53,500 bases of DNA, taken from Nemertoderma westbladi. Taxonomy: Eukaryota; Animalia; Xenacoelomorpha. The notes beneath the pieces were generated by a model that was given only the letters and a program-made list of their open reading frames with translations, was not told the DNA's origin and made no database searches. The DNA is taken from contig JAUCBJ010000958.1 in NCBI GenBank assembly GCA_032718475.1, positions 1-53,500 on the forward strand, in the 5' to 3' direction. Numbering within the stretch: position 1 is the stretch's first letter; each line of letters opens with the position of its first letter. Of the stretch, positions 330 to 40,243 are shown in pieces. Position numbers and translations under genes: made by a program.

Positions 330-3266
330 TCATTTCACGGCGTACAGGAACAGTGAGCGTTTTACTGTTGTTAGTAGAGTCGGGACGCCAGTGCAACTGA
401 GGCCGTGGTCCTTGTCCGTCGCCTGGTCGTCGCAGAGACGGCAGACGCATGTGGGGGTCGGCCGCCAACACCCTTTACTGCGGCAGAGCTTGTGGTGCGA
501 GCCATTGGAGATGAATTGGGCTGCAGCGCGGCGCCTGTAGCCTGTGAGTTCGAGGAGGGAGAGCTCGCCGTTCTCTGCAGGGCGGTCGACCGCGTTTAGG
601 ATTGCCGTGGTGGAGGCGTATTTGCTCACCCCGCACCACAGTTTCCAGTAGAACGCGCGAACGAGCTCCACGTGTGGTAAGCTGGGCGCGTCGGCCGCGG
701 AAACGCCGTAGACGGAGCAACCGTATGTGGTAGACGGAAGGACAACCGCGCGCCACAATCGACCAGCTGTTACAATTGATATGTTATTGAAATTGACCCG
801 GGAAGCCAATCTCATGCAGGAGGAGATCCCTCGTTTATGCAGGTGAGTGTAGTGACCGGACGCACAAGCAGTGGTTGTCAGTACGACTCCGAGGTACTCG
901 AAAGAGTTGACGAACTCGAGAGGCGATCCTTGGTACATGAGGATGTCCGACTTACAAAGCCGACCACCGCGCCGGAATTTCATGGCCTTTGTTTTGGATT
1001 TATTAACGATCAGATCGTATTCTTTGCAATAGTCGGAGAGGTTGTCGAGTCCCGCTTGTACTTCTGCGATGGTGGTTCCGGTGATGGCTACATCATCAGC
1101 GTACATGAACAGGAGGCACCCAACAGCGAGTATTACAACTGGGAGATCGTAGAGAAATAGACTGAACAAGAGAGGTGACAGTTTATCTCCCTGGACAACT
1201 CCAATCGTTTGTGTTATGGGGTCCATGACGAAAACACCAAGGCAGATGCAGACGTAGTTGGTTGATAACAGTGCCCAGAGGGCAGCGATGAACGCCCGAC
1301 TGACGCCCAACTTGGAGAGTTTGAAGCATAGCTTCCTGCGGTTAACCGAGTCGAAAGCTTTTGAAAAGTCGACGAACACGCAGTACACGTGTCCTCCGGG
1401 GTTTCGCAAAGTCTCTCGGATTAGTGTAATCAGCTTCGTAGCCGCTTGTATCGTAGAACGCCCCTTGCGGAAACCGTACTGGCAGTTTGGGAGAATTCCT
1501 GAGGATTCGGTCCAGGGGTATAGCCGATTATATAATATAGTCGTGTATGTCTTTAGTAGGCAGGAAAGTAGAGCGATTCCCCGATACGAATTCGGGGAGA
1601 CTTTAGGGCCCTTTCCTTTATAAAGGGGGAGAAGATATGAGGTCAGCCAAAGGGCCGGGCAGGTTGCCGCCGACAGACACGTCGAGAACAGAGTGAGGAG
1701 AAATGGAAGGAGAAAACTGAAACCGAGTTTCATAGATTCATTAGAAACCCCGTCGGGACCCGCAGCTTTGTGATTCTTCTGTGAATGAACGGCGGAGGTA
1801 ACTTCATCTGCGTCTATCGGGTGGTCCAGGAATGGTATTGGTTGTTCCGGTAGGACGGGGAGTTTGGTGTCGACGTCGCGAGTAAGTAGACTGCTGAAGT
1901 GGGATGACCAGTCCTCTGAGGCAACCTGTTGCGGTGCGGAGTGTTGGCGTTTTGCTTTCGTTATATTCCAGAAGACCGTGTAGTCGGCCTCGCATCGGTC
2001 AATGAGGTTCTGTTCTTTCTGAGCCTCGTATGAACTCTTCTTGGATCGAAGGAGCGATATATAGGTACGTTTCAGTTGGCAGTATTCCTCTCGGTTCGAG
2101 TCATTCGGATGCACACGGACGCGTTGATGACTGGCCTTTACAGTACGTTGGAGCTCGTAGCAGTCTTTTGTAAACCACGGTTTAGACGTTTTCTTCTGGC
2201 GAGACGCTGCTGCGCCTCTCAACGCATCAGTAATGTAGTTGCAGGCACCGTCGATATCATGTTCTGCTAAATTGTTAAAGTCATTGATATTCATTGACAG
2301 TTTGTCTACGAGAACATCAGTGTCAATGTCATTGATTCGTTGAGCGCGTTCGTTCCGTGGGGGCGAGGCAGATAGTGTTGCGATACAGGTTGAAACCCGT
2401 TGATGTTTGCAGTTTATTGTGGTTAGAACTGACACATCTGTAATATCTATTAAACTGGGGTCAATAAACGTAAGGTCAATGACACTGTGGCCATTCCAGC
2501 AAATATAGGTTGGTGTATCCGGGTCGGTTATACAGACTAGACCCAGCCCGGCGAGTCCGTCGCATAGCAGGTCACCACGAGAACTGCTGTCCCCGTCGAT
2601 GCGGCAATTAAAATCCCCAGCGAGCAGGAGCGGCGCTGTAGAACGAACGCGAGTAGCCGTAATGATAGGGATGAGTTCTAGTAGGATATCGGTAACATCG
2701 GTTTTTGGCTTGTAGTACGCGGATATTATATTTAGACCAGGGATTGATATCGCAATTACGTTTTCGCTTTTATGATGGCATTTCGGAGTCCAGTTATTTC
2801 TCATATGAACCCCGATGGTTATACCACCGTACGGACGGCCGGTATCACCTTTTTCACTAGAAATGTTGAAACATTTGAAATCGGGGATATCAGGATCTTC
2901 CTGAAGAGTCTCGGTAAGAATGAGAATATCGGTATCAATAAATGTATTATCAGTCGTAGTGTCGATCGTACTTGTTATACCCTCAACATTCCATAGGAGT
3001 AAGGATATTCCGTTTGAGTTATTAGGCAACGGGGCCCTTGACATAAACTCCGAGTTAAATGGTAGCTCTTCGAAATAAGATAAACATTGTGATGATATGA
3101 AGCGTTGACAGAGTTTTTCGTGCTTTATAAGGCTCGCCATGTATCGGTAAGGCTTTTTGCAACCTGTACACAGGCGGGCTGTTGTTGCAGGTAAAAGTAG
3201 GTTTAGATTGGTATCGGTAGGGCCGGTGTCAGAGTTTGTTAGGGGAGTTATTACAGGTTCTCTTAG
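330..3266 (-). CDS. LINE ORF2: N-terminal zinc finger, APE endonuclease, reverse transcriptase and C-terminal Cys/His domain (intact frame; clade uncertain)
   Basis: APE motifs WNVEG, LTET, AGDFN, SVIDLTF; RT motifs YRGIALLS, QYGFR, FVDFSKAFDSV, QGDKLSPLLF, MYADD, YLG; C-terminal HHKLC..CVCRLC..H...C. The frame stays open upstream of the Met at 3140 to 3266 and includes CTGCKKPYRYMASLIKHEKLC. Confidence 0.93.
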   Translation of the reverse strand, partial: LREPVITPLTNSDTGPTDTNLNLLLPATTARLCTGCKKPYRYMASLIKHEKLCQRFISSQCLSYFEELPFNSEFMSRAPLPNNSNGISLLLWNVEGITSTIDTTTDNTFIDTDILILTETLQEDPDIPDFKCFNISSEKGDTGRPYGGITIGVHMRNNWTPKCHHKSENVIAISIPGLNIISAYYKPKTDVTDILLELIPIITATRVRSTAPLLLAGDFNCRIDGDSSSRGDLLCDGLAGLGLVCITDPDTPTYICWNGHSVIDLTFIDPSLIDITDVSVLTTINCKHQRVSTCIATLSASPPRNERAQRINDIDTDVLVDKLSMNINDFNNLAEHDIDGACNYITDALRGAAASRQKKTSKPWFTKDCYELQRTVKASHQRVRVHPNDSNREEYCQLKRTYISLLRSKKSSYEAQKEQNLIDRCEADYTVFWNITKAKRQHSAPQQVASEDWSSHFSSLLTRDVDTKLPVLPEQPIPFLDHPIDADEVTSAVHSQKNHKAAGPDGVSNESMKLGFSFLLPFLLTLFSTCLSAATCPALWLTSYLLPLYKGKGPKVSPNSYRGIALLSCLLKTYTTILYNRLYPWTESSGILPNCQYGFRKGRSTIQAATKLITLIRETLRNPGGHVYCVFVDFSKAFDSVNRRKLCFKLSKLGVSRAFIAALWALLSTNYVCICLGVFVMDPITQTIGVVQGDKLSPLLFSLFLYDLPVVILAVGCLLFMYADDVAITGTTIAEVQAGLDNLSDYCKEYDLIVNKSKTKAMKFRRGGRLCKSDILMYQGSPLEFVNSFEYLGVVLTTTACASGHYTHLHKRGISSCMRLASRVNFNNISIVTAGRLWRAVVLPSTTYGCSVYGVSAADAPSLPHVELVRAFYWKLWCGVSKYASTTAILNAVDRPAENGELSLLELTGYRRRAAAQFISNGSHHKLCRSKGCWRPTPTCVCRLCDDQATDKDHGLSCTGVPTLLTTVKRSLFLYAVK

Positions 3267-4058
3267 TCAGACGGGCGGCAGCTGCCCAGCGTCCGGCTGA
3301 GGGTTGAGAGCTCGTAGTTTAAGGTTGGCTCGATCAGCTGGACCGAGATAGTGCCGTGTGATCGTGGTTCCCATAGGCCAGTTGTCTGGAGCAAACACAG
3401 CACTGGAAGAAACCTCGTTAGGACACACAACGTGGAAGGCGGCCATGCTCGGCACGACGGTATCATCGGGGTTGGGCCCAATTTTGAAGACGTTTTCAAT
3501 TTGAATATGTTTACCAGCTAGATGTTTTTTGATCATTTCAGTGGATGTATCGGGATCCAGACGACCGACCCGAACATGGAAACGGGGAGGTGGCAGCGCA
3601 ATAGCCTTCAGACCTCCGGGGGAGGCCTCGGACGTTGCGGTATTACCGGTTGCGACTACAACCAGACGGCGCGGTTTATTCGCCGCCATCGGGGTTGCGC
3701 GTTGCGTGTTGGGGGGGTTCGCAGTGGGGGCAGACCCCGCCGCTCCCGCCAGAGATCCACGAACGGAGCTTTGCGGTTGCTTGGGCCGGGTGGCGGGTCC
3801 GGGTGGCGGCTGGGCCACCTTGGCCAACGCCTTGGCGTAGGGTGGTTTCTCTTTTTGTTCCAAAAGAGAGTTCTTTGCGGCGATCGTTTCCGCACGTGCG
3901 TCGCTTAGTTGGCCGAGTGTAATGGTGTACAACGAGGTCATTGCGGCGACATGTTCGGCGAACAGTTTCTCATCAACATGGTTGACGCACTTCTTCACCT
4001 TCACGGCCTTTACAAGGTCGAGAAGTTGATCTTGTAGGTTTATAAACTTCTCCGCCAT
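3267..4058 (-). CDS. LINE ORF1 (coiled-coil-like N-terminus, RRM-like C-terminal domain)
   Basis: Lies directly 5' of ORF2. C-terminal HVRVGRLDPDTS..IKKHL..FHV..NWPMG..RHY resembles the ORF1 RRM-type domain of invertebrate LINEs. First ATG is at 4058. Confidence 0.8.
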   Translation of the reverse strand: MAEKFINLQDQLLDLVKAVKVKKCVNHVDEKLFAEHVAAMTSLYTITLGQLSDARAETIAAKNSLLEQKEKPPYAKALAKVAQPPPGPATRPKQPQSSVRGSLAGAAGSAPTANPPNTQRATPMAANKPRRLVVVATGNTATSEASPGGLKAIALPPPRFHVRVGRLDPDTSTEMIKKHLAGKHIQIENVFKIGPNPDDTVVPSMAAFHVVCPNEVSSSAVFAPDNWPMGTTITRHYLGPADRANLKLRALNPQPDAGQLPPV

Positions 4059-5228
4059 TGTATCCGTAAATATAATAAGATCAAATATCAAATAAATTTA
4101 ATAATAAAATGTATTTTATTAACTAGTGCAGTAGTCTGGCTGTATTAACTGACTGGTCTAAAATTAACGGTGCCGTAACATAAGGCTACAAAGTGAATGC
4201 TAGCAGCAGCATTCAAAGAAACTTCCCCATTCTATCATTGCAGTGGACAAATAAGAGAGTTATGAGGTTTGCAATGCTCTGTGGCACCGGGTTGAACTGA
4301 GGTTCGAGGCGCGCTCTCTTTGGGCCCATCCCCTTTTCGGCACTGTAGCCCGATGAGCACCTTTTAGACATGGTGAAAACTTGGGGTCTATCGATATAGA
4401 GGGTCAGTGATTTCCTACTTTTTGATTTTTGTCGATTTTTATAGTTTACATTTAATGTTGCTTTGTTGCAAAAAAATTGTTCTAGAATGTTAAAAACTCT
4501 CCCTAGTGAATCCTAGTGAATCGATTGAATTGTTGCTGATATTGTACCCCTATCTATAGTCTATAGGCTACATAGGGTAAGTGTGGTACCCATGGACACA
4601 CTTTTTTCATTTGGGTCTCAAGAACTCAATATTCATTCAATTTATTTCAAAGTGGTTTTAAATGAAAGGAAACACCAAGAACAATATCCAGTTATGTAAA
4701 GGATTTAGAGGCTGACTACGGCCTTGTTAATTGCCCTATTTTTACGCCTTAATCTGATTTCATTACTGCTGTAGTAATATCCGCTATGTCTGTAGGAATG
4801 CAATTCTATCCCAGCAATGGCTCTGCAATATTAGTCATCCGTGGGTGTTACGTGTGTCCGCTGCTGGTGGTGAGATTAGTTGCAACTAGTATTACTGGTC
4901 GACTCATCTTGCCTACCAGCAATGCATTGTTTCCATAGAAACCACCCCCCAATATTATTGATAATCATTATTATGGGTCGAGCCTAGAAGAGGCAGAGAC
5001 TTGCCATATGGACATCAATAGCAATTGTCAGTCTGCAGTGTGTCAGACTGTTTGTATTTCAAATGCTTCCCATTTGGTTGCTCTTAATCTGATAGAGCTG
5101 AAGCTTGGAATGCATTAATCAGGCCGAAAGTTGAGGTTATCAGACACTCACAAATGGACAACTATATGGCGATATTCCATCCTTATCGACCACTCTATGC
5201 AAGAGACGGCTGAGGTTCAGTGGGCACA

Positions 5229-5490
5229 GCGAAGTCCCTCTAATATGTTGCATCCCTCTCGTGCGGCGCGAATTCCCTCTAATATGATGCATCCTTCTCG
5301 TGAAGCGCGAAGTCCCTCAAATATGTTGCATCCCTCTAATGCAGCGCGAAGTCCCTGTAATATGATGCATCCATCTCATGCAGTGCGAAGTCCCTCTAAT
5401 GTGATGCATCAATCTCGTGCGGCGCGAAGTCCCTCTAATATGATGAATCCCTCTCGTGCAGCGCGAATTCCCTCTAATATGATGCATCCT
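5229..5490. repeat. 39-bp minisatellite, about 6-7 copies
   Basis: Unit approximately GCGAAGTCCCTCTAATATGATGCATCCCTCTCGTGCAGC. Confidence 0.9.
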
Positions 5491-5571
5491 TACCGCAGGC
5501 GAGGCGGTACTGAACCTGCTTTAGTAAACGCCAAATTAATTATTTGAATCTAACCCTCTAAGCAAAAAGTT

Positions 5572-5637
5572 CTTACCCAGGATTCGAACCCGGTACCTCT
5601 AGAGTACAGTGCACGCGCCTTATCAACTGCGCTATTC
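5572..5637 (-). other. tRNA-derived (SINE-head-like) sequence
   Basis: Minus strand has A-box-like TAGCGCAGTTGA and B-box GGTTCGAATCC at tRNA-like spacing; no convincing acceptor stem. Confidence 0.6.
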
Positions 5638-6283
5638 CTCATTACCCTAACAGGCAGACAGGGTCCCACGCAAAATGGTGTCCATGGAACCCATGTCGCT
5701 CATTTTTTATTGTTTTGCTTCTAAGTCTTGGGAGGAGGCTGTGATGCAAATAAGGCCCTGGAATCTGTTTGCCCAGTAAATTTGCCATCAGTTGGATCAT
5801 CAATGATTTGGATACAGCACACATGGCGATCGCTATAAAAAAAGTTATGGGAGGGCAAAAAAGAAAATCAGTACCCCCAAAACCATTTCCCTCCAATAAC
5901 TCTGCACAATTCTATTTGTAGTGTATAAAAATTAGTGCCATGCAACATTCTAGATAAAACAACGCTATTTTTGGCCATTTGGTGTGCCTGCATCCCCAAG
6001 AGACTGAGATCGGATGGGTGGCCCTGGAACCCACATGGTCAGCGGATGCCACACTTACCCTACATACCGAGATGGCCTACTCTAAGTTTAACTGTCCGGG
6101 AAGGGCACATTGCGACTTTCATTGTGTGGAGGATCTGGACATCCACCAAACAACATAAGCGAAGATATGGACGTGGTGGTGTACTCATTGCCCTTAAAAA
6201 GTGCAGGTAAGTATACTTGACTACATTCCAGGTAAGTATGCAACGATATAAATGCATAGTTACCCAAATATTTAACAGGCTAA

Positions 6284-6507
6284 AGCCTGGTTCATACTTC
6301 AGTGAAACTTTTGTTACATGCAAAAGTTGAGTGACTAGCCAGTTCATACTTCATTTAAACGTTTGGATGCAACAAAAGTTTAACTGTAGTATGTACTGGC
6401 TAGTCGCTAAACTTTTGCATGCAACAAAAGTGTAACTGTAAGTATGAACTGGGTAGTCGCTAAACTTTTGGTACTAACAAAAGTTTCACTGAAGTATGAA
6501 CCAGGCT
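6284..6507. mobile_element. PIF/Harbinger-type MITE, 224 bp
   Basis: TIR AGCCTGGTTCATACTTCAGTGAAACTTTTGTTA with its perfect reverse complement at the right end; TAA on both flanks (6281-6283 and 6508-6510). Confidence 0.85.
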
Positions 6508-6828
6508 TAAGATTGTGTTATGGCAGAAGATTTAGCCTAACTTTGCAAAATACAGTTTTTGTTGGTCAAAATTGGTTAAAATCCACGACTAAATGCATGC
6601 TGCATGAAATCCTCTAGAAGTGTGGGAATTTATTGTACCAGACAATCACTCTTGCATCAGAGTGTCTGCATTTCTTGAATCAGACTATATTGCTTTCTTC
6701 ATCAGACAGTGTCTGTGTATGCAGTATGCACCACTTTTGTTGAATAGGCAAAATGTACTCCTCAGTTTCAGTTATGTACACAATTATCACTGTTGTGCTA
6801 ATCCTAGGGCTCTGATATGGTTGTTGTG

Positions 6829-9627
6829 CTAAGCAGACAGAGTGTGTGCTAACGTGATGATTCTATCTTTGTTCTTCTGTGGTGTTGTCTTTGTTCTTCC
6901 AACTTTCACTAGCAATGGAGACAGCACTGTGGACAAATCACAATGCATTTCCTCAACTTCTTTCTGCAAGAAATAACCATATACTGGTCTTGCAGATTCA
7001 CCAGCTTTATCCTGCAAATAGAGTATGTGACGCAATTTTCCCCTATAGTTTTGGTTCCAATATGCTATACACTTGTATTCGCCCTCTTCCAATTCAAGCA
7101 CTTTTCTCACACTCCTCTTTTCCTTCGCAGGATATTCAACCAAACACATGGACTTGGCCTTCTCATATTCAGTTTCTACTTTCTTCAATCTATCTTGGAT
7201 ATTTTGTTGTTCGCCTTCAATTGGGCTTCTCAATAATTTAATTGGATACCAAATGATTAACTGCTGCTTGTCATTTGTGAACTCTTTGGGTGCGTGAATT
7301 TCAATTTCCAGTTTTCCATCAACCAAAAAATAAATTTCTCTTGTTTTTTGTTCTTGTGCTCTGTGAAAAGCATCTCTCAATTCATCTAAAACACACTCCA
7401 AGCCTCCGTTAGAATATATCTTGGAAATTTCACCACCAATCGAAAGCAAAATTTCGTATCTTTGGTAGGGTCCAGTTGCTTGTCGAAATCCAAGCACTGT
7501 TACTTGTAATGGTTTCTTACCATCCAGCTCACAAATTTTTTTTATGGGAGTATTCTTCAATAGATGCAAAACATATTCCTTTTGTTCATTTTCATGTTGT
7601 TTTCTTTTCTTGAACTCCAGCAACCTTTTGTGTATCAGGGCTACTTCTTCTCGATTTCTTGCACTTCTTTGCAGTGCTTCTTGTCTCCATTTTTCACATT
7701 CTAAATAATCTAGAATATCTATGTTCCTCTGTGCTCTTTTCCAGGTTGACAACCAAGATACCTGATGTGTTTGCAAGTATTCAGGCACCTCTTGTAGTTT
7801 CCATTGCACCTTTGCTGTTCCCAATGATTTGCAAGGCTCTTGTCTCCAAGTCCATTCTATGAAATCTGTTGGTGGCAACATTTCTTCCAACGGAATTCTT
7901 GCTTGAACTGACCTACACTGTGTTGGTAGTTTCGATGAGCAAAGTATTGTTTTTGCAGTGGGGTCTTTGAAATAGCATTTCAGAGGTGCTATTTCTGTGC
8001 CCTTTTCAATTTCATTTTGATTTCTAATTTGGAAGCAAAATATAGGACAACCTCGAAATCCAAATTCTGAACAACTCCACAATATAGCCTTCTCCCATCT
8101 TTGTCTATTTTCTTGTATATCAAACTTACACTGCACTTTCACTCCAGAAACTTTCCCAGTTTTTGTGTGAGCATACCAAGCTACATATATTGTTCCTGTG
8201 GTCTTAGAGGCGATGACACAACACCTTGTCAGCTCTTTTGCTAGCCAGTGATTCCTCCCACTTTGCTAGAGCTAGCCAGTGATTCCTCCCACTTTTCTGT
8301 ACAAATAATCCCTCATATGGCTGTATGTTTTCCTGTCAGCTCTTTTGCTAGAGCTAGCCAGTGATTCCTCCCACTTTGCTGTACAAATAATCCCTCATAT
8401 GGCTGTATGTTTTCCTGTCAGCTCTTTTGCTAGAGCTAGCCAGTGATTCCTCCCACTTTGCTGTACAAATAATCCCTCATATGGCTGTATGTTTTCCTGT
8501 CAGCTCTTTTGCTAGAGCTAGCCAGTGATTCCTCCCACTTTGCTGTACAAATAATCCCTCATATGGCTGTATGTTTTCTAATGCACTTCTCATCACTTCT
8601 GCACCAAGATCTCTAGATATGTAATTCATAGAGTACAAGGATATCTCAACTCTTGTACATCCATATTTCTGGATCAAAGGATGTTCAAAGGTTTTCCGAA
8701 GAACAGGGTTTCTGCAATCAGCATAGTCTGCCAAATGACCACCAAAGTTCTCTAATACTTCCCCTGCTTCAAACTGGCAAACAATTTTGTTGTATAGCTT
8801 CACTCTCATTGTATTTCCATCCCATGATGTGATGTAGGTCAAAACATGATTTCCAACAGATGAAGTGTTTTCCAAAATCGTGGGCTGATCACCCTCCAAT
8901 GCTGCTTGAAATGTACCTTCCAACCTCCAACCTTTTGTTTCCACTAGATGTTTGACTATTGCCTTCCTATCGAGGGTTCCAGCAAAGTCCTTTGTGTAGT
9001 CAACAGAGTATATTCCCCATCCACATGTCTGCAGTACTCTGCCAAATTCAGCCAAGTGCTCCTGCAGATCATCTAGGTTGATTACAGATACATCCAACTT
9101 TGCAACAAAGACAGCAACAGGTTCTTTCTGTTCCAGGTTTTTCCAGTTTTTGATATATTTCTCATTCATCTCTCTTTCAATTTTATGCACTGTTCGCATT
9201 ATCACTCCATGCGATTGTAATGGTACAGAGGCTAAGTAAAGTCATCACAGTTCTTCCCGATTGTTTGTGTTGCCTCCCTCCTCAACTTCTCCACAATATA
9301 AGAGGCAGACCCAAATCTTCCAGTTGTCAACATGACAGAACTTTTGGTTCTCACAACTTGATCTTCTCGAAGATACCCATACACATAAAGATCGTCAACA
9401 AACATTTCCAATTCAGGCACATCTTGAAGCAACATACAACCTCCATTGCCTCCTAGGTAATCTACTTTTGATATATCAGTCAGAAGATTAGACTCATAGG
9501 CATTCTCTAACAGTAGATGCATGCAAGCTGACTTCGGTGCTCTCAATCCCATCTGTTCAAATGTCACGAACTGGGTAGTATCCATACTAGTTGGTTTATT
9601 GATGTTTTCACATATAGTAGTAGCCAT
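6829..9627 (-). pseudogene. Disrupted ~840-aa protein with Rep_trans-like (rolling-circle initiator) motifs; virus- or mobile-element-derived
   Basis: ORFs 9232-9627, 8477-9205 and 6829-8142 join into one frame after correcting a frameshift near 9240 and removing the 82-bp tandem duplication (..ALAKELT-RCCVIASKTTGTIYVAWYAHTKTGKVSGVKVQC..). Motifs SVDYTKDF, RVKLYNK and TRVEISL are in Rep_trans order. No introns are needed. Confidence 0.6.
8227..8578. repeat. 82-bp tandem duplication (about 4 copies) of coding sequence inside the Rep-like gene
   Basis: TGTCAGCTCTTTTGCTAG... recurs at 8227, 8334, 8416 and 8498; the first copy has an extra internal 25-bp duplication. Confidence 0.95.
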
Positions 9628-9662
9628 AGAAATTTTCTATTAGTTTTGATTTCATAAATAAA

Positions 9663-9670
9663 TCAATTTT
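9663..9670 (-). promoter_or_regulatory. AAAATTGA motif (nucleocytovirus early-promoter-like)
   Basis: TCAATTTT on the + strand, about 36 bp upstream of the ATG at 9627. Confidence 0.45.
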
Positions 9671-10091
9671 TTTACATAATCTTACTTATAGCAAGGCAAT
9701 AAATATATCGGACATAGGCCTACCATTTGGATTGGTGCAACATATACTACATTATATATATATATGAACTTCCAACCATATTGTGCTCATATATACAGTA
9801 GAGTCTGAACATATGAACAATTTTCAGGAAATTGGAATCCATCCATTTTTAAGCGAAAAATTTGGTGAAAATGATAATTATTTGTGATAAATCGGTGTAA
9901 AAAAGTAGTTGAAATTTTGCTGTAGTTTGACAATTTTTGTCAGTCTGGTAAGGTAATTTGTTGTCTTTTCATGTTAATAACAAACTTTGATGGCAAAAAA
10001 GATGAAGAAGTCAATATTCCATCAGCTCCCCCACTCTACTGCGAATAAAAGTTTTAATTTAAAGAATCAACCTCTAAATTAAAACTAATGG

Positions 10092-13000
10092 ATGGCTATC
10101 AAAGATGCAACCAATAAATGTAATTTATTTACTAAGGAACAATGGGCGTTTTTATCTAATATGCATGAACCTAAACAAGATTTCAAAAAGAAAATACAAG
10201 AAGGTTGTAAATCATGTAATGGAAAAGATTTTGAATTCATTAATCATAGGAAAGTCTGTGTTGAGTGTGGAGTTATAAAAGAATTCATGGAACTTTTAAA
10301 TTCTTCTTATAATAATAATAATTATAATAAACATAGTACAGAGTTTAAATATAGTAGAGAAGCTTATTTCAAATCTTGCATCAGACAGTATCAAGGACTA
10401 CAATTTTGTAGAATTCCAGATCATTTATTGAGAGAGATAACAAAAAAATTTCAAGAGAACAATCTATTGGTTGAGGATTCTGAAAATAGATACTCTTCTA
10501 TAACAAGAAAAGATATAACAAGATGTTTAAAAGAAATAAATTATGCTAAACATTACAAGAATGCTAATTTTATCTATCAAGTTATTACTAATAATCAAAT
10601 AGACAATATTAGTCATTTAGAAACAAAACTCTTATGTGATTTCAATAGATTCGTTGTGGAATATAATAAACTGCATATACAACGCAAGAACTTTCTCAGT
10701 TTACAGTACTTATTGTTTCAGTTTCTTTCAATAGATTCATTGTGGAATATAATAAACTGCATATACAACGCAAGAACTTTCTCAGTTTACAGTACTTATT
10801 GTTTCAGTTTCTTTCAATAGATTCATTGTGGAATATAATAAACTGCATATACAACGCAAGAACTTTCTCAGTTTACAGTACTTATTGTTTCAGTTTCTTT
10901 CAATAGATTCATTGTGGAATATAATAAACTGCATATACAACGCAAGAACTTTCTCAGTTTACAGTACTTATTGTTTCAGTTTCTTTCAATAGATTCATTG
11001 TGGAATATAATAAACTGCATATACAACGCAAGAACTTTCTCAGTTTACAGTACTTATTGTTTCAGTTTCTTTCAATAGATTCATTGTGGAATATAATAAA
11101 CTGCATATACAACGCAAGAACTTTCTCAGTTTACAGTACTTATTGTTTCAGTTTCTTTCAATAGATTCATTGTGGAATATAATAAACTGCATATACAACG
11201 CAAGAACTTTCTCAGTTTACAGTACTTATTGTTTCAGTTTCTTTCAATAGATTCATTGTGGAATATAATAAACTGCATATACAACGCAAGAACTTTCTCA
11301 GTTTACAGTACTTATTGTTTCAGTTTCTTTCAATAGATTCATTGTGGAATATAATAAACTGCATATACAACGCAAGAACTTTCTCAGTTTACAGTACTTA
11401 TTGTTTCAGTTTCTTTCAATAGATTCATTGTGGAATATAATAAACTGCATATACAACGCAAGAACTTTCTCAGTTTACAGTACTTATTGTTTCAGTTTCT
11501 TTCAATAGATTCATTGTGGAATATAATAAACTGCATATACAACGCAAGAACTTTCTCAGTTTACAGTACTTATTGTTTCAGTTTCTTTCAATAGATTCAT
11601 TGTGGAATATAATAAACTGCATATACAACGCAAGAACTTTCTCAGTTTACAGTACTTATTGTTTCAGTTTCTTTCAATAGATTCATTGTGGAATATAATA
11701 AACTGCATATACAACGCAAGAACTTTCTCAGTTTACAGTACTTATTGTTTCAGTTTCTTTCAATAGATTCATTGTGGAATATAATAAACTGCATATACAA
11801 CGCAAGAACTTTCTCAGTTTACAGTACTTATTGTTTCAGTTTCTTTCAATAGATTCATTGTGGAATATAATAAACTGCATATACAACGCAAGAACTTTCT
11901 CAGTTTACAGTACTTATTGTTTCAGTTTCTTTCAATAGATTCATTGTGGAATATAATAAACTGCATATACAACGCAAGAACTTTCTCAGTTTACAGTACT
12001 TATTGTTTCAGTTTCTTTCAATAGATTCATTGTGGAATATAATAAACTGCATATACAACGCAAGAACTTTCTCAGTTTACAGTACTTATTGTTTCAGTTT
12101 CTTTCAATAGATTCATTGTGGAATATAATAAACTGCATATACAACGCAAGAACTTTCTCAGTTTACAGTACTTATTGTTTCAGTTTCTTTCAATAGATTC
12201 ATTGTGGAATATAATAAACTGCATATACAACGCAAGAACTTTCTCAGTTTACAGTACTTATTGTTTCAGTTTCTTTCAATAGATTCATTGTGGAATATAA
12301 TAAACTGCATATACAACGCAAGAACTTTCTCAGTTTACAGTACTTATTGTTTCAGTTTCTTTCAATAGATTCATTGTGGAATATAATAAACTGCATATAC
12401 AACGCAAGAACTTTCTCAGTTTACAGTACTTATTGTTTCAGTTTCTTTCAATAGATTCATTGTGGAATATAATAAACTGCATATACAACGCAAGAACTTT
12501 CTCAGTTTACAGTACTTATTGTTTCAGTTTCTTTCAATAGATTCATTGTGGAATATAATAAACTGCATATACAACGCAAGAACTTTCTCAGTTTACAGTA
12601 CTTATTGTTTCAGTTTCTTTCAATAGATTCATTGTGGAATATAATACACTGCATATACAACGCAAGAACTTTCTCAGTTTACAGTACTTATTGTTTCAGT
12701 TTCTTTCAATAGATTCATTGTGGAATATAATAAACTGCATATACAACACAAGAACTTTCTCAGTTTACAGTACTTATTGTTTCAGTTTCTTTCAATAGAT
12801 TCATTGTGGAATATAATAAACTGCATATACAACGCAAGAACTTTCTCAGTTTACAGTACTTATTGTTTCAGTTTCTTTCAATAGATTCATTGTGGAATAT
12901 AATACACTGCATATACAACGCAAGAACTTTCTCAGTTTACAGTACTTATTGTTTCAGTTTCTTTCAATAGATTCATTGTGGAATATAATACACTGCATAT

Positions 13001-13264
13001 ACAACGCAAGAACTTTCTCAGTTTACAGTACTTATTGTTTCAGTTTCTTTCAATAGATTCATTGTGGAATATAATACACTGCATATACAACGCAAGAACT
13101 TTCTCAGTTTACAGTACTTATTGTTTCAGTTTCTATGTAGGCATGAACACCCCTGCAATATTGAAAATTTTACTATATTAAAAACAGAAAATGCTAAAGA
13201 GTTTCACAATGATATTTGCAAAAGAATTTTTAAAATCTTAGGTTGGAAATTTACACCTATGTAA
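10092..13264 (+). pseudogene. VLTF3-like viral late transcription factor (poxvirus A2L / iridovirus-like), interrupted by an 86-bp array
   Basis: CKSC..CVECG zinc ribbon, YSREAYFKSCIRQYQG, KHYKNANFIYQVIT, RKNFLSLQYLLFQFL, and after the array LKT..HNDICKRIFKILGWKFTPM*. Removing 28 repeat units (2408 bp) leaves 765 bp, an open 254-aa ORF. Confidence 0.88.
10641..13134. repeat. 86-bp tandem array, exactly 29 copies, nearly identical
   Basis: Unit TTCAATAGATTCATTGTGGAATATAATAAACTGCATATACAACGCAAGAACTTTCTCAGTTTACAGTACTTATTGTTTCAGTTTCT; 2494 bp / 86 = 29. Confidence 0.97.
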
Positions 13265-13355
13265 TATGATTTAAATATTATATTATATTATTATTGTAAA
13301 CTACAGTATATAGAATGCAAGTCATTATAAAAATTACTTTAATTAACATTCAATA

Positions 13356-13514
13356 CCTCGGAGGTTTCAATACCTTAGTTTCCAAACCAAAGCCTACTCA
13401 TACATTCACCTCGGAGGTTTCAATACCTTAGTTTCCAAACCAAAGCCTACTCATACATTCACCTCGGAGGTTTCAATACCTTAGTTTCCAAACCAAAGCC
13501 TACTCATACATTCA
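13356..13514. repeat. 53-bp tandem repeat, 3 copies
   Basis: CCTCGGAGGTTTCAATACC... at 13356, 13409 and 13462. Confidence 0.93.
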
Positions 13515-13519
13515 CAGTT

Positions 13520-16500
13520 TTTTTTTTATCTACAATGACCTTTGCTCAGCGTATGAGAACCTATTATTTTTTTATCTACAATGACCTTTGATCCGCGTGT
13601 GAGAACCTATTATTTTTTTATCTACAATGACCTTTGATCCGCGTGTGAGAACCTATTATTTTTTTATCTACAATGACCTTTGATCAGCGTGTGAGAACCT
13701 ATTATTTGTTTATCTACAATGACCTTTGATCAGCGTGTGAGAACCTATTATTTTTTTATCTACAATGACCTTTGATCAGCGTGTGAGAACCTATTATTTG
13801 TTTATCTACAATGACCTTTGATCAGCGTGTGAGAACCTATTATTTGTTTATCTACAATGACCTTTGATCCGCGTGTGAGAACCTATTATTTTTTTATCTA
13901 CAATGACCTTTGATCAGCGTGTGAGAACCTATTATTTGTTTATCTACAATGACCTTTGATCCGCGTGTGAGAACCTATTATTTGTTTATCTACAATGACC
14001 TTTGATCCGCGTGTGAGAACCTATTATTTTTTTATCTACAATGACCTTTGATCCGCGTGTGAGAACCTATTATTTTTTTATCTACAATGACCTTTGATCC
14101 GCGTGTGAGAACCTATTATTTGTTTATCTACAATGACCTTTGATCCGCGTGTGAGAACCTATTATTTGTTTATCTACAATGACCTTTGATCCGCGTGTGA
14201 GAACCTATTATTTTTTTATCTACAATGACCTTTGATCCGCGTATGAGAACCTATTATTTTTTTATCTACAATGACCTTTGATCCGCGTGTGAGAACCTAT
14301 TATTTTTTTATCTACAATGACCTTTGATCCGCGTGTGAGAACCTATTATTTTTTTATCTACAATGACCTTTCATCCGCGTGTGAGAACCTATTATTTTTT
14401 TATCTACAATGACCTTTGATCCGCGTGTGAGAACCTATTATTTGTTTATCTACAATGACCTTTGATCCGCGTGTGAGAACCTATTATTTGTTTATCTACA
14501 ATGACCTTTGATCAGCGTGTGAGAACCTATTATTTGTTTATCTACAATGACCTTTGATCCGCGTGTGAGAACCTATTATTTGTTTATCTACAATGACCTT
14601 TGATCCGCGTGTGAGAACCTATTATTTTTTTATCTACAATGACCTTTGATCCGCGTGTGAGAACCTATTATTTTTTTATCTACAATGACCTTTGATCCGC
14701 GTGTGAGAACCTATTATTTTTTTATCTACAATGACCTTTGATCCGCGTGTGAGAACCTATTATTTGTTTATCTACAATGACCTTTGATCCGCGTGTGAGA
14801 ACCTATTATTTGTTTATCTACAATGACCTTTGATCCGCGTGTGAGAACCTATTATTTGTTTATCTACAATGACCTTTGATCCGCGTGTGAGAACCTATTA
14901 TTTTTTTATCTACAATGACCTTTGATCAGCGTGTGAGAACCTATTATTTGTTTATCTACAATGACCTTTGATCCGCGTGTGAGAACCTATTATTTTTTTA
15001 TCTACAATGACCTTTGATCCGCGTGTGAGAACCTATTATTTGTTTATCTACAATGACCTTTGATCCGCGTGTGAGAACCTATTATTTTTTTATCTACAAT
15101 GACCTTTGATCCGCGTGTGAGAACCTATTATTTGTTTATCTACAATGACCTTTGATCCGCGTGTGAGAACCTATTATTTTTTTTATCTACAATGACCTTT
15201 GATCAGCGTGTGAGAACCTATTATTTGTTTATCTACAATGACCTTTGATCCGCGTGTGAGAACCTATTATTTTTTTATCTACAATGACCTTTGATCCGCG
15301 TGTGAGAACCTATTATTTGTTTATCTACAATGACCTTTGATCCGCGTGTGAGAACCTATTATTTGTTTATCTACAATGACCTTTGATCCGCGTGTGAGAA
15401 CCTATTATTTGTTTATCTACAATGACCTTTGATCAGCGTGTGAGAACCTATTATTTGTTTATCTACAATGACCTTTGATCCGCGTGTGAGAACCTATTAT
15501 TTGTTTATCTACAATGACCTTTGATCAGCGTGTGAGAACCTATTATTTGTTTATCTACAATGACCTTTGATCAGCGTGTGAGAACCTATTATTTTTTTAT
15601 CTACAATGACCTTTGATCCGCGTGTGAGAACCTATTATTTTTTTTATCTACAATGACCTTTGATCCGCGTGTGAGAACCTATTATTTGTTTATCTACAAT
15701 GACCTTTGATCCGCGTGTGAGAACCTATTATTTGTTTATCTACAATGACCTTTGATCAGCGTGTGAGAACCTATTATTTGTTTATCTACAATGACCTTTG
15801 ATCCGCGTGTGAGAACCTATTATTTGTTTATCTACAATGACCTTTGATCAGCGTGTGAGAACCTATTATTTGTTTATCTACAATGACCTTTGATCAGCGT
15901 GTGAGAACCTATTATTTTTTTATCTACAATGACCTTTGACCTTTGAACCTATTATTTTTTTATCTACAATGACCTTTGATCCGCGTGTGAGAACCTATTA
16001 TTTGTTTATCTACAATGACCTTTGATCCGCGTGTGAGAACCTATTATTTGTTTATCTACAATGACCTTTGATCAGCGTGTGAGAACCTATTATTTGTTTA
16101 TCTACAATGACCTTTGATCCGCGTGTGAGAACCTATTATTTGTTTATCTACAATGACCTTTGATCAGCGTGTGAGAACCTATTATTTTTTTATCTACAAT
16201 GACCTTTGATCCGCGTGTGAGAACCTATTATTTGTTTATCTACAATGACCTTTGATCCGCGTGTGAGAACCTATTATTTGTTTATCTACAATGACCTTTG
16301 ATCAGCGTGTGAGAACCTATTATTTGTTTATCTACAATGACCTTTGATCCGCGTGTGAGAACCTATTATTTGTTTATCTACAATGACCTTTGATCAGCGT
16401 GTGAGAACCTATTATTTGTTTATCTACAATGACCTTTGATCCGCGTGTGAGAACCTATTATTTGTTTATCTACAATGACCTTTGATCAGCGTGTGAGAAC

Positions 16501-16965
16501 CTATTATTTGTTTATCTACAATGACCTTTGATCCGCGTGTGAGAACCTATTATTTGTTTATCTACAATGACCTTTGATCAGCGTGTGAGAACCTATTATT
16601 TTTTTATCTACAATGACCTTTGATCCGCGTGTGAGAACCTATTATTTGTTTATCTACAATGACCTTTGATCCGCGTGTGAGAACCTATTATTTGTTTATC
16701 TACAATGACCTTTGATCAGCGTGTGAGAACCTATTATTTGTTTATCTACAATGACCTTTGATCCGCGTGTGAGAACCTATTATTTGTTTATCTACAATGA
16801 CCTTTGATCCGCGTGTGAGAACCTATTATTTGTTTATCTACAATGACCTTTGATCCGCGTGTGAGAACCTATTATTTGTTTATCTACAATGACCTTTGAT
16901 CCGCGTGTGAGAACCTATTATTTGTTTATCTACAATGACCTTTGACCTTTGAACCTATTATTTGC
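13520..16965. repeat. 46-bp satellite, about 75 copies
   Basis: Unit GAACCTATTATTT(G/T)TTTATCTACAATGACCTTTGATC(C/A)GCGTGTGA; the same phase recurs at 13741 and 15121 (30 x 46). Confidence 0.97.
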
Positions 16966-17025: not shown

Positions 17026-20000
17026 TTGGTGGCCGCATTGAGCGGTTTTCTATACTACTGCCATACTACCTTACATACAAGACATGACAGACGTGTAACT
17101 AGTATGATAAGTCACAAGGAGCAGCTAATCCACCAGGTGAGTTTAGAACTTGGGGAGAAGACGAGTCAGCTAGAGATTCCATCGACGACAGATGATAACG
17201 CCGGAAGGCTTGCGAGTCTACCTACCCCAATAACCTCAACAATGCCCGTCGATATCGATGATGACGCGTTGAGAAATCATCAAGTGGAACAAGCTGCACT
17301 GGACAAAGAATTAACGGAGAAGACTATCAGGTGGTTAGAACAAGATACAGCTGAACCTGGTAGCTACGAACCATGTATGTCGGAACAGGAGAAACAATCT
17401 TTGAGGATCATGGAAGATACTATCCGCCAGACGAAAGACGGACATTATGAGGTGGGGATGTTATGGCGAAGCCAAAGTCCTAAACTTATAAATAACTACC
17501 CACTAGCTTTAAGGCGTCTACACTCAATACGGCAACGTCTATTAAAGGACGAGAAAGCCCATCTGCAGTACAACACTCAGATGGAGACGTATTTGACCAA
17601 GGGATACGCTATCCGAATGACTAACCCAGAGATAGTGACTGACCAGACGTACTACTTGCCACATCACTTCGTGAGACACCCCGACAAACCAGACAAAGTA
17701 CGTGTAGTCAATGACTGTGCGGCTCTGTTTGAGGGAATGTCCCTCAATAGCGAATTGATGGATGGACCAAACATGAATAATTATCTTATGGGGGTGATTA
17801 TGCGCTTCCGTCAGCGTCAAGTAGCCTTTACTTGTGACGTAGAAGCTATGTTTCACCAAGTGAGAGCGTTGGAGCGAGACAGAGACAGTTTGAGGTTCCT
17901 CTGGTACCCGGAAGGAGACTTAAGTCTACCACCGGCGACTTACCAAATGCAAGTTCGCGTTTTCGGTGCCAGAGACAGCCCAAACTGTACGATGTACGCC
18001 CTAAAACAAACCGCTAGGGATCAGAAACATTTATATGACCCAGAGATAATTAGGATTGTGGAGCGTGACTTTTACGTCGACGACGGTTTACAGAGTTGCG
18101 ACACAGTAGAACGTGCTACAACAGTAGCACATCAATTACGGGACTGCTTAGCGGGCGGAGGTTTTAACCTCACCAAATTCGCCTCAAACAGTGCTGAATT
18201 AGTAGACTCATTCGGAACGACTGAGCGTGGAGGTGGTGACATAGACCTAGAGTTCGAACCACTACCGACGACCAAGGTGTTGGGGCTCTTTTGGGACCCA
18301 AACACGGACAACTTTCGAGTGAAGGTGAGACTGGACAGTCAAGAAAACACACTGACAAAGAGATCATGCTTGTCAAAATTGAGCCGATTGTTCGATCCAT
18401 TAGGATTCATCAGTCCAATAATACTGCAAGCCCGCATTTATATGCGCAGTATTTGGAAAGATGGACTGACATGGGACGAGCCGATCTCATCAGACCAAGT
18501 GGACTTATGGAAGACCTGGGAGGCAGAATTATCTTCGCTAGAGGATTATTCCATACCCAGAGTCTACTTTCCATTACAAACAACGTTTCCTGACAACTTG
18601 GAATTACATTGTTTTTCTGACGCCAGTGACAACGGTTTTGGTGTGGCAGCGTACTTGCGCAGACAAGTAGACTCAGAAGAATTCGATGTTTCGCTCATTA
18701 CTTCTAAGGCAAAAACAATGCCTACTAAGTATATGACGACACCACGAGCTGAGCTACAAGCTGCAACCCTGTCAACCACCATCGTGAACCTTATACAGAC
18801 AGAACTACAGTCAAGTTTACAGATATTTTATTGGACTGACGCGACGTTGGTTTTATTTTACATAAACAACGACACACTTGAATTCAAGACATTCGTAGCT
18901 AACCGTCGCGCGGAAATTCTAGACCGTTCAATAAAGGAAGATTGGCGACATTGTCCCGGACCACAAAACCCAGCCGATATTGCGTCGCGAGGAATGATGC
19001 CTGAGGAATTCTGTAAACCGGAGAACAAAGAATTTTGGCAACACGGACCTCAATTCTTACAAAGATCAACACTAAATTGGCCACCACTATATGACAACAA
19101 GTCTAACACTATCCCTAAGGACGCCGAAATCAAGAAACCAAAAAAGGGGAAGGCAAAGAAAAGGACGACGGCGGCCAAACTTAAGAAGAAACCGAAGGCG
19201 AAATGGAAGGATATAACTTCAAAGGTCAAGAGAGGAAGACTTGCGAGCCTTTCTACACCAGACATATCGCCAGACGGTCAACCAGACACGTTACCAGACG
19301 GTCAACCAGACGTTTTGCCAGACATATCACAAAATGTTCTACCAGACACTAGTAACATACTGACAAACAGTAAAGCCGCAGTTTCTCTATTGGAGCGGCC
19401 TTCTTTTGACAAACAACCAGATACGTTACCAGACGTATCGCCAGACACGTTACTAGACGGTCAACCAGACGTTTTGCCAGACACGTCACTAGATATTTCG
19501 CCGGATGTTCCGCGAAACATTTTACCAGACATGTCACAAAATGTTCTACTAGACACTAGTAACATATTGACAAACAGTAAAGCCGCAGTTTCTCTATTGG
19601 AGCAGCCTTGTATTGACAAACTACCAAATTTGACACACTTGAGCAACGATAAGCACGGTGAAACCTCATGTATTACAGATGTGGGTAGTACCTACGCTAA
19701 TGTAAATACAGGTGTTACTTTGCGCTCAAGAGACATACCGAACTTGCAACCTATGGTGAGACCTGGGATTAATGTCGGCAGAAAAATAAGTTTACCGAAA
19801 CCCACTGACCGCATAGAGTTCAAACCACCATTAACGATCGACTTACAAAGTAGTGACAATCAAGGTAAGAAGACGAAGAAGGACAAATTACTTGTAGACC
19901 CAGACGGATCAACAGTCAACAAGGGAATACTTACCGGCGGACCCGTGGGCCCTTCTAGTAAATCAAAACCTTCCAAATTCTCCATTGACTTACCTGATGA

Positions 20001-21525
20001 CGTCACAAATACTTACGTCGACCGTATTGTAAACCTAACAGATTCTTGGACAAACGCTTGCCGAAAATTAGCGTGGATTGTACGTTTTGTACAATACGTT
20101 AAAGGCAAACGAGACTTTACACGTCGACTTACATTGGCTGAGATTGACAGGTGTGAAATTAAATTAATTCGCCATTACCAACTGCGATATTTCGCACGCG
20201 AATTCACATCTATAAATCAAGGTCAACCAATCAAGTCGTCACCAATATTGAGTTGGAGTCCGATAATTTATAACGGCTTAATTTGTCATAAATCTCGGCT
20301 TCAAAACATTGACTTTAACACAAACTTTAGATACCCAATAATAATACCGCAACATCACGAACTACAACGTGCAATGATACTGGACGCACATTTACATCTG
20401 AAACACGCTGGAAGACACCACTGTCTTTCGTACTTACGTACAAGATTTGTATTAATTAGACCCAGTAAAGCATTAAGTTCAGTGACACGTACGTGTATTA
20501 TTTGTAAAAAGGTACATTCTAGAATAGGTACCCAAGAAATGAGTGAACTTCCACAAGCACGACTTCAAGCATTCAGACCACCTTTTACAGAGACTGGAAT
20601 TGATTGCTTTGGTCCCATACATACGAAACGTGGACGTATACTAGTAAAACGCTGGGGACTGATTTTCACATGTATGTCCAGTAGGGCAGTTCATATTGAA
20701 CGTGTGATGGATCTTTCCACCAACGCGTTTATACTAGCATTGCGGCGATTTATCGCTAGACGCGGACTAGTGAAATGCTTGTACTCAGACCAAGGGACAA
20801 ACTTTGTTGGTGCTCGAAATGAGATTGCTAGAGCCTTTAAGAAATTAGATCATGATCAAATCTCGAACGAACTACAACCTCACAAGATTGTTTGGAAGTT
20901 TAATCCTCCAGATAGTCCTTGGAGGGGCGGAGTCTGGGAGAGATTGATTAGATCTATCAAAACGGCAATGGCAAAGGTCATTCCAGTAAACCACATATTA
21001 ACAGACGACCAACTGACAACATTGTTTGTTGAAATCGAGGCAATACTAAATACTAGACCAATAGTATTGGTACCCGATGACAAACAATCCCAGTTTGCAT
21101 TAACACCTGCACACCTGCTAATGCAGGCACCGACAACATTGACGCCTATTTCAATTCCAACAGAAAGCGATAGCTACGGTAGAAAAGCGTGGAAAATCAC
21201 GCAACTACTGGCTAACAAATTCTGGGAAATATGGCAAAACCATTATTTGCCCTCTATTTCTGCCAGAACAACTTGGTACAATAACACCCGCGCATTAAAG
21301 CCGGGAGATCACGTGCTGTTAGCGGAAGTGAATCTAAAAAGACGCTTCTGGATAACAGGTGTAATTTTAGCCACACATCCATCTATGGATGGAGTGACAA
21401 GAACTGTGACGGTACGGACAATTGACGGTCGTACAGTAGACAGACCGACTCAACGTCTCGTACTTCTTGAAGAGACTCGTAACGAGTCTCGAGACTACAA
21501 ATCTCCACCTAATATTAGTAAATAA
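17026..21525 (+). CDS. BEL/Pao pol polyprotein (RT, RNase H, integrase), 5'-truncated
   Basis: YYLPHH..KVRVVND, DVEAMFHQV, FYVDD, LFDPLG, FSDAS, PRAELQAA, WTDA, NPADIASRG, HHCC, GIDCFGP, SDQGTNF, GGVWERLI. Gag and most of the protease are absent; a remnant NLG*LVA (LGW-like motif) lies just upstream. Confidence 0.95.
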   Translation: MVAALSGFLYYCHTTLHTRHDRRVTSMISHKEQLIHQVSLELGEKTSQLEIPSTTDDNAGRLASLPTPITSTMPVDIDDDALRNHQVEQAALDKELTEKTIRWLEQDTAEPGSYEPCMSEQEKQSLRIMEDTIRQTKDGHYEVGMLWRSQSPKLINNYPLALRRLHSIRQRLLKDEKAHLQYNTQMETYLTKGYAIRMTNPEIVTDQTYYLPHHFVRHPDKPDKVRVVNDCAALFEGMSLNSELMDGPNMNNYLMGVIMRFRQRQVAFTCDVEAMFHQVRALERDRDSLRFLWYPEGDLSLPPATYQMQVRVFGARDSPNCTMYALKQTARDQKHLYDPEIIRIVERDFYVDDGLQSCDTVERATTVAHQLRDCLAGGGFNLTKFASNSAELVDSFGTTERGGGDIDLEFEPLPTTKVLGLFWDPNTDNFRVKVRLDSQENTLTKRSCLSKLSRLFDPLGFISPIILQARIYMRSIWKDGLTWDEPISSDQVDLWKTWEAELSSLEDYSIPRVYFPLQTTFPDNLELHCFSDASDNGFGVAAYLRRQVDSEEFDVSLITSKAKTMPTKYMTTPRAELQAATLSTTIVNLIQTELQSSLQIFYWTDATLVLFYINNDTLEFKTFVANRRAEILDRSIKEDWRHCPGPQNPADIASRGMMPEEFCKPENKEFWQHGPQFLQRSTLNWPPLYDNKSNTIPKDAEIKKPKKGKAKKRTTAAKLKKKPKAKWKDITSKVKRGRLASLSTPDISPDGQPDTLPDGQPDVLPDISQNVLPDTSNILTNSKAAVSLLERPSFDKQPDTLPDVSPDTLLDGQPDVLPDTSLDISPDVPRNILPDMSQNVLLDTSNILTNSKAAVSLLEQPCIDKLPNLTHLSNDKHGETSCITDVGSTYANVNTGVTLRSRDIPNLQPMVRPGINVGRKISLPKPTDRIEFKPPLTIDLQSSDNQGKKTKKDKLLVDPDGSTVNKGILTGGPVGPSSKSKPSKFSIDLPDDVTNTYVDRIVNLTDSWTNACRKLAWIVRFVQYVKGKRDFTRRLTLAEIDRCEIKLIRHYQLRYFAREFTSINQGQPIKSSPILSWSPIIYNGLICHKSRLQNIDFNTNFRYPIIIPQHHELQRAMILDAHLHLKHAGRHHCLSYLRTRFVLIRPSKALSSVTRTCIICKKVHSRIGTQEMSELPQARLQAFRPPFTETGIDCFGPIHTKRGRILVKRWGLIFTCMSSRAVHIERVMDLSTNAFILALRRFIARRGLVKCLYSDQGTNFVGARNEIARAFKKLDHDQISNELQPHKIVWKFNPPDSPWRGGVWERLIRSIKTAMAKVIPVNHILTDDQLTTLFVEIEAILNTRPIVLVPDDKQSQFALTPAHLLMQAPTTLTPISIPTESDSYGRKAWKITQLLANKFWEIWQNHYLPSISARTTWYNNTRALKPGDHVLLAEVNLKRRFWITGVILATHPSMDGVTRTVTVRTIDGRTVDRPTQRLVLLEETRNESRDYKSPPNISK

Positions 21526-40057: not shown

Positions 40058-40243
40058 TTATAAGATTGTTATATTGAATTGTTTATTTTGTTGTTAAATA
40101 AGTAATCTTTGCTATATATATTAATGTTTTAATTTTTATTTTAATTGTAATTTTTTATTTAATTTGATATCATTTGATGAGTTGGTACAAATAAAGCTGA
40201 TGTCGAGATAAATCATATTTCAAGTTTATAGGATTCGATTTCG

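Follow-up and report, generated by a model that had tools for sequence, protein, structure and literature searches.

A 53,500-nucleotide stretch from the xenacoelomorph Nemertoderma westbladi (GenBank assembly GCA_032718475.1, contig JAUCBJ010000958.1, positions 1 to 53,500; the whole stretch is referred to here as the window) contains two divergent genes. On the left, a − strand gene encodes a protein resembling Rep_trans rolling-circle initiators (the Rep-like gene) and, on the right, a + strand gene encodes a homolog of the viral late transcription factor VLTF3. Their start codons (9625–9627 for the Rep-like gene and 10092 for VLTF3) are separated by 464 bp. A first-pass annotation had drawn attention to this arrangement as a candidate endogenous virus or mobile element, and its coordinates, spacer length, and motif positions and order proved exact on rechecking. 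The Rep-like gene is spread over three frames (9232–9636, 8477–9241, and 6829–8265) and is disrupted twice, by a frameshift near 9235 and by a tandem array of 3.9 copies of an 82-bp unit (8262–8578; copies 99% alike). The 5′ piece (9232–9627, − strand) begins with the ATG at 9627, contains the N′ Asp of an FVDDLY sequence (codon 9394–9396), and matches the corresponding part of metagenome locus L001 at 58%. The middle piece (8579–9241, − strand), identified from its relatives, motifs, and structural models as the predicted TBP-fold nickase core, contains K-x-D (about 9098), D-x3-D (DYTKD; 8987–9001), K-L-Y-N-K (KLYNK; 8786–8800, with the Tyr codon at 8792–8794), an invariant Glu (8768–8770), and R-V-E (RVE; 8645–8653), all on the − strand. 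The 3′ piece (6829–8265, − strand) comprises an α/β domain, a long helix, and β-rich C-terminal domains, and ends with a TAG stop codon at 6829. An original length of approximately 840 amino acids is plausible because the three pieces each match one continuous protein in other loci, and unbroken relatives mostly contain 830 to 980 amino acids.

The middle piece has 31 relatives with 36–59% identity (among 1367 candidates), none of which has a precomputed Pfam domain or a name. A profile search of 1.84 billion representatives returned 1149 clusters at E ≤ 0.001, 788 at E ≤ 1e-10, and 324 at E ≤ 1e-30, with possible coiled-coil noise among the weakest. Members of the family were detected in 33 metagenome loci and in a single locus among 185,579 prokaryote genomes; the latter (L034) is a 1.5-kb contig of a symbiont metagenome-assembled genome and was read as host contamination. 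No viral contig was matched in two scans, which require exact short motifs. Near-identical members occur on many different long contigs (in clusters of 30, 17, and 11), the pattern expected of a repeat. Ratios of nonsynonymous to synonymous substitution (dN/dS) of 0.19, 0.27, and 0.13 in three unsaturated pairs indicate purifying selection; for the window pieces, the proportion of nonsynonymous differences was 0.25–0.33 against saturated synonymous differences. In the family tree, the window piece groups with L001 (support 100/99) and deep nodes are unresolved. An open reading frame (ORF) of approximately 100 amino acids lies upstream of the Rep gene in this closest relative and is shared by a second locus (L001:447–788 and L016:631–972). 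Another ORF, of approximately 95 amino acids (MELVR...F-FE-FR), is convergent with the Rep gene, lies just downstream of it, and is conserved in three families (L002:4225–4509, L004:3267–3542, L022:3281–3721, and L029:6821–7123, all on the − strand). Neither ORF has a Pfam match, and the downstream ORF has no match in the window. L008 and L011 are fold-back copies, in which the 5′ part of the Rep gene has one orientation and its 3′ part, together with the small ORF, has the opposite one.

Rep_trans proteins are described by five motifs (an N′ Asp, RxD, T/SxY/ExG, YxKxxE, and W/LxRxE), and their catalytic Tyr is located on a β-strand, unlike that of HUH enzymes (PMC5714925; here and below, citations refer to excerpts of the papers named). 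In the animal family, D, D, K, Y, N, K, E, G, and R residues are conserved in all 31 relatives and a last E in 30 of 31; the motifs are not due to chance, since they are near-invariant against a mean column identity of 28–29%. Both Asp residues of x-I-D-Y-T-x-D-F are present in 31/31 rows, the Thr is invariant, K-x-Y-N-K is intact in 31/31, and R-x-E retains its Arg in 31/31 and its Glu in 30/31. The alignment also revealed an N′ Asp (F-V-D-D; 26/27 rows), an addition to the motifs listed in the first-pass annotation, and the metal-triad residues occur in the Rep_trans order (N′ Asp, 26/27; motif I Asp, 31/31; motif IV Glu, 30/31). The same residues hold in 85–93% of covering rows across 145 further matches, many of them fragments, with the Tyr found in 75/88, the motif I Asp residues in 77/84 and 77/83, and the Arg and Glu of R-x-E in 80/88 and 78/88. 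The Tyr of Y-N-K is located on a β-strand (residues 263–271) in the predicted model of a relative.

AlphaFold models were examined for two natural relatives, with predicted local distance difference test (pLDDT) scores of 85.8 and 89.7 (89.7 for the domain model). Foldseek searches with the domain model ranked the Rep_trans structures 4cij and 4cwc first and second (E 0.010 and 0.012), followed by TBP, and with a structure aligner 4cij came out on top among 48,161 chains, level with TBP (Z 7.1, root-mean-square deviation 6.6, 183 residues aligned, 16% identity). Rep_trans itself is reported to possess a TBP-like fold (PMC13595969, PMC13107129). The nearest neighbors in the ESM protein language model were Phage_CRI (0.93) and Rep_trans (0.92), and all 10 named matches fell in one clan; the shared-feature counts (165–168) were slightly below the typical 170. 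The C-terminal part of the relative's model is β-rich and has weak matches to OB-fold and single-stranded DNA-binding proteins in the PDB (E 0.015–0.06). HUH families gave no Pfam match in the 31 relatives, and the predicted fold is TBP-like. A PDB sequence search returned nothing useful, and tblastn against phage records yielded only matches with E ≥ 2. Motif order, predicted fold, and language-model neighbors thus uphold the earlier proposal of a Rep_trans-like nickase, and sequence profiles do not; overall, we consider this assignment very probable. The protein does not belong to PF02486 itself.

The Rep-like gene belongs to a mobile element that is widespread in animal DNA and present in many copies, and the window contains a damaged copy of it. 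Host copies were examined in contigs from three sequencing runs of the same species (X1, X2, and X3), which come from two studies; X1 and X3 represent one sample, and one of the runs may be the source of the window. The non-coding 5′ end of the element (9628–9951, − strand) has a high summed contig depth, a measure that does not equal copy number, and this drops sharply past 9951, from 2112, 2474, and 1162 in X1, X2, and X3 to 97, 193, and 654 on the right side (from 9978 on); a neighboring single-path contig has a depth of 22–38. Three X1 contigs and four X2 contigs follow the element as far as 9951 and then diverge into different DNA (examples are 1665, 709, and 466 bp long). Contigs of 2760 and 2174 bp carry 9948/9949–10357 followed by DNA unlike the element, so the region upstream of VLTF3 (9952–10091, + strand), part of a different repeated unit, also exists without the element. 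A second junction, evident in all three runs, connects the element end to position 10328 inside VLTF3. Both window junctions fall on TAA, corresponding to TTA on the Rep strand, and these three bases are common to element and target. They occupy 9949–9951 (− strand) at the first junction, where they are also present in the element-free form of the site, and 10328–10330 (+ strand) at the second, where the ends of other copies are joined; TTA occurs at 5% of positions in the junction region. In one metagenome family, all nine loci begin at TTA, with five distinct flanks, and L002 and L003 are 96% identical from one point onward with different flanks. The 3′ side varies in the metagenome families, and the 3′ end in the window is located somewhere between the stop codon and about 6275–6516. 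The element thus shows a fixed end, a short oriented target, and many dispersed copies, as HUH rolling-circle transposons do. A 138-bp inverted repeat in L004 was considered as the terminal inverted repeat of a cut-and-paste element, but the same sequence is also arranged in tandem and is missing from the other 11 loci scanned, so it more likely represents a duplicated 5′ end of the element. Long perfect hairpins were seen near element ends at L002:620–785 (L002/L003), L029:3994–4119, and L026:2797–2901, and may be either ends or separate insertions.

The right gene is also interrupted. Its 5′ part (10092–10724, + strand), containing a zinc-ribbon-like CxxC pair and the core, is separated from its 3′ end (13135–13264, + strand; TAA stop codon at 13262–13264) by a tandem array of 29 copies of an 86-bp unit (10640–13134) that was amplified from inside VLTF3 and has a junction that is also found in X1 and X3 contigs. 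Two pieces matched Pox_VLTF3 (PF04947), with E-values of 3.2e-26 and 1.5e-14 and scores of 92.5 and 54.5 bits (curated cut-off 25), and the ESM comparison gave 0.96 to Nucleocytoviricota clusters, so the earlier identification of this gene as VLTF3 is sound. Its best viral matches reach 35–37% over the 5′ piece, in a motif-selected set, and it may be of either Polinton or nucleocytovirus origin. A word search for relatives yielded none among 80 candidates, and viral scans using the VLTF3 piece, and using the flank of L022, gave nothing useful. In all three runs, a VLTF3 fragment of approximately 76 bp (window 10343–10418) also occurs within a different high-depth repeat, which suggests gene-fragment capture. 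One subgroup of coral polintoviruses is reported to carry VLTF3 (PMC11131425), and isolated copies are reported in a sea anemone genome (PMC5294986); the window VLTF3 could therefore be one more insertion target of this kind.

These features are probably explained by a decayed multicopy element with a sharp TTA end, which encodes a predicted TBP-fold, Rep_trans-like Tyr nickase and moves by rolling-circle transposition, with VLTF3 belonging to a separate endogenous viral unit. For the chemistry, intermediates, and target bias of the element, we infer the following scheme. The Tyr of Y-N-K would nick one strand at the TTA end, with a metal held by the N′ Asp, the motif I Asp, and the motif IV Glu. 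The element encodes no helicase, and a host enzyme of this kind would help to peel off the nicked strand. The β-rich C-terminal domains would hold this strand, which would be ligated to a TTA-like target, and termination at the other end of the element would be loose. In the window, the element would have inserted into the viral unit carrying VLTF3. A preference for Polinton or virus DNA, of which we are less sure, might let the element ride between hosts.

The head-to-head layout could alternatively reflect one endogenous animal DNA virus that owned both genes, resembling mriyaviruses with a non-HUH initiator in place of theirs. Mriyaviruses are reported to pair VLTF3 with a rolling-circle initiator (PMC11253617), both window genes are multicopy, and high depth is also seen at the junctions where the element end meets VLTF3. 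However, VLTF3 was found beside none of the 33 metagenome Rep loci (on short contigs) and at none of 34 Rep loci in a repeat check, and conversely none of 103 viral VLTF3 genes (motif-chosen; 23 of these loci have short flanks only) had a Rep gene in the flanking DNA examined, which extended to at most 6 kb. The long window ORFs scanned included no capsid, packaging ATPase, or PolB gene and none of the mriyavirus set (HUH endonuclease, capsid, packaging ATPase, and VLTF2) beside VLTF3. tblastn with 11 L035 proteins or 120 pPolB relatives found no Polinton genes in the window, and no long inverted repeat spans the two genes. The sharp element end within the spacer, the unrelated flanks, and the element-free form of the site also argue against a single virus. 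The linkage of the two genes that the first-pass annotation proposed to test was thus absent from the loci examined, and its reading of the locus as one integrated virus is largely refuted and very improbable. Its other suggestion, a virus-borne element, fits better, in the form of a transposon that landed next to viral or Polinton DNA, perhaps by preference. Other copies do adjoin such DNA. Five loci of one family (L012, L017, L019, L021, and L024) border the N-terminal part of a PolB gene at two different points, and their tested flanks matched the PolB of contig L035 at E 2e-22 to 0.003. L035 encodes an A32 ATPase, an integrase, and a PolB-type ORF that is not matched by the PF03175 profile; we call this ORF PolB because it has DTDS, N-LYG, and NSIFGK motifs and an Endonuclease_7 domain and lies beside A32 ATPase and rve integrase genes. 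L010 probably provides a third junction with this gene (26 of 28 bases), and the three junctions are contained within about 600 bp. L025 has a weak match to Polinton-type DNA (E 4e-5), and L022 runs into a pPolB with relatives that contain PF03175 and have been annotated in a stony coral. In L021 (2–3499), the frame is open from an upstream Polinton PolB fragment, giving a possible 1166-amino acid PolB-Rep fusion ORF.

Such repeated junctions inside PolB genes, with three in approximately 600 bp of one gene, and others inside and beside VLTF3, would also fit a satellite replicon with Polintons or large DNA viruses as helpers; this would be a small rolling-circle plasmid that replicates itself in infected cells and integrates into helper DNA, with the genomic copies as by-products of helper integration. 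Rep_trans proteins are, moreover, described as replicon initiators and not as transposases (PMC5714925). Nevertheless, copies L017, L027, and L028 are flanked by ordinary host DNA, several unrelated single-path contigs carry other flanks, the motif-dependent viral scans detected no member, and Polinton flanks are inflated in metagenomes because multicopy DNA assembles preferentially, so the satellite is an unlikely explanation. Several junctions in one target gene could have arisen through separate insertions or through one-ended deletions of a copy already in place, and both would need an enzyme acting at that end; the element itself has perhaps a preference for viral or Polinton DNA. In another interpretation, the protein has a TBP fold but no relationship to Rep_trans, being some other enzyme or DNA-binding protein, and movement of the element is passive or relies on other chemistry. 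TBP ties with Rep_trans or beats it (Z 7.7 vs. 6.8 with the full model), and sequence profiles provide no link to Rep_trans. Against this, five conserved motifs occur in the Rep_trans order on matching strands, 4cij aligns more residues at higher identity than TBP (183–186 at 16% vs. 140–165 at 7–10%), and the ESM neighbors are Phage_CRI and Rep_trans. We regard an unrelated protein as improbable.

Several observations weigh against a Rep_trans-like rolling-circle transposon. The Arg of RxD is absent from all 31 relatives, being replaced by S, C, Q, E, or A; a near-invariant Lys (30/31) on the neighboring strand may substitute for it. The invariant Glu that follows YxK is 8 residues on, vs. 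5 in the YxKxxE of Rep_trans, and the structural scores are middling as well as tied with TBP. No Rep_trans or Phage_CRI Pfam match was found in the 31 relatives, the three window pieces have no Pfam match, and a PHROGs search assigned no family. hhalign against a seven-sequence Rep_trans alignment gave a best probability of 0.9%, inside the shuffled range (score 19.7, vs. a shuffled mean of 14.3 and maximum of 25.3). Of the two comparisons recommended in the first-pass annotation, the fold search came out weakly in favor of Rep_trans, which ranked first or tied first with TBP, and the profile comparison did not. At the DNA level, the junction contigs extend only 26–39 bases on their short sides, and depth is not copy number. 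No 3′ end, target-site duplication (or its absence), or circle was seen, the flank of the element-free form was not recovered beyond the other end of the element in the window, and the element's ends there have no significant terminal hairpin (z −1.2 and −1.0). At two junctions of family B, the homologous target allele in L021 reads TAA rather than TTA. Polinton flanks were found in only 2 of 11 metagenome families, the other copies being located by host genes.

Among known systems, the closest are Rep_trans (PF02486; pT181 RepC, RepD, and RepSTK1) and Phage_CRI (PF05144; inovirus gpII), which share the predicted TBP-like fold and the motif order; RLDLAFDF, IRIYNK, and WRVEIEL of RepC correspond to SIDYTQDF, VKLYNK, and TRVEISL of the animal family. 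Unlike them, the animal proteins have no hidden Markov model or profile match to these families, lack the RxD Arg, and contain about 870 amino acids with extra domains, compared with about 315. They are also encoded in animal chromosomal repeats, whereas Rep_trans is described as restricted to bacteria and Rep-Arvir as archaeal (PMC13107129). Rep-Arvir (DUF7845), from archaeal viruses and plasmids, offers a parallel in that it is tied to Rep_trans by structure only, with similarly weak Foldseek scores (PMC13107129); it differs in being an archaeal replicon initiator with a KHYYM motif and a winged-helix domain, and DUF7845 gave no Pfam match in the 31 animal-family relatives. HUH transposons (Helitrons, Replitrons, IS91/ISCR, and IS200/IS605) resemble the element in its likely copy-and-paste movement, oriented insertion at short targets, and one fixed and one loose end, and Replitrons and IS91 likewise lack a helicase (bioRxiv 2022.12.15.520654), but their Rep is an HUH protein with an RRM fold, and the protein described here has no HUH family match and a different predicted fold. 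Polintons and polintoviruses, MELD viruses with VLTF3, and mriyaviruses share VLTF3 with the locus, and relatives of the element adjoin Polinton PolB genes, yet no PolB, integrase, ATPase, capsid, or terminal repeats were found in the window, and mriyaviruses are reported to use HUH initiators (PMC11253617).

No eukaryotic Rep_trans-type element appeared among the literature matches listed, and an unpublished entry in a repeat library such as Repbase or Dfam is possible. The eukaryotic rolling-circle elements in the literature surveyed (Helitrons, Replitrons, CRESS viruses, and mriyaviruses) are all HUH-based, and the element, with its predicted non-HUH nickase, probably defines a new class of rolling-circle transposons in eukaryotes. 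More tentatively, it may represent a new order of eukaryotic DNA transposons: a eukaryotic branch of Rep_trans/Rep-Arvir, non-HUH, inserting at TTA and parasitizing Polintons and large animal DNA viruses as vehicles. If so, TBP-fold nickases would be found in all three domains of life (excerpts of a 2026 paper assign Rep_trans to bacteria and its sister family to archaea), and the classification of eukaryotic transposons would gain an extra transposase chemistry. Because hundreds of diverged clusters are unnamed, repeat annotation is likely to miss the whole class. The existence of intact natural copies makes nicking and transposition directly testable, and a one-gene nickase targeting TTA could serve as a tool. 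A genuine bias toward viral DNA would provide a concrete route for horizontal transfer.

The remainder of the window is repeat-rich, animal-type DNA containing long interspersed nuclear element (LINE) reverse transcriptases, a BEL/Pao retrotransposon, a Tc1-like transposase, a QCR9 gene, and many tandem arrays. A LINE with ORF1 and ORF2 (330–4097), a BEL/Pao element (17026–23798), a Tc1-like transposase (27808–28846), and further LINEs (40232–46623) were identified, together with an intronless QCR9 (UQCR10)-like host gene (33375–33758, − strand; Pfam E 8e-10). Two non-autonomous elements with inverted ends occupy 4573–6062 and 6275–6516; run contigs bridge the first (4572 joined to 6061), and the second is a MITE-like insertion with 77-bp inverted arms. 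Near-perfect, young tandem arrays with units of 36–86 bp occur at 8262–8578, 10640–13134, 13355–13515, 13521–16945, and 29955–31280, and further arrays of this type at 33972–34900, 37849–40057, 47090–47794, and 48785–49738. Two of the window arrays were amplified from inside coding sequence, and the arrays possibly reflect a rolling-circle or slippage habit of the host genome.

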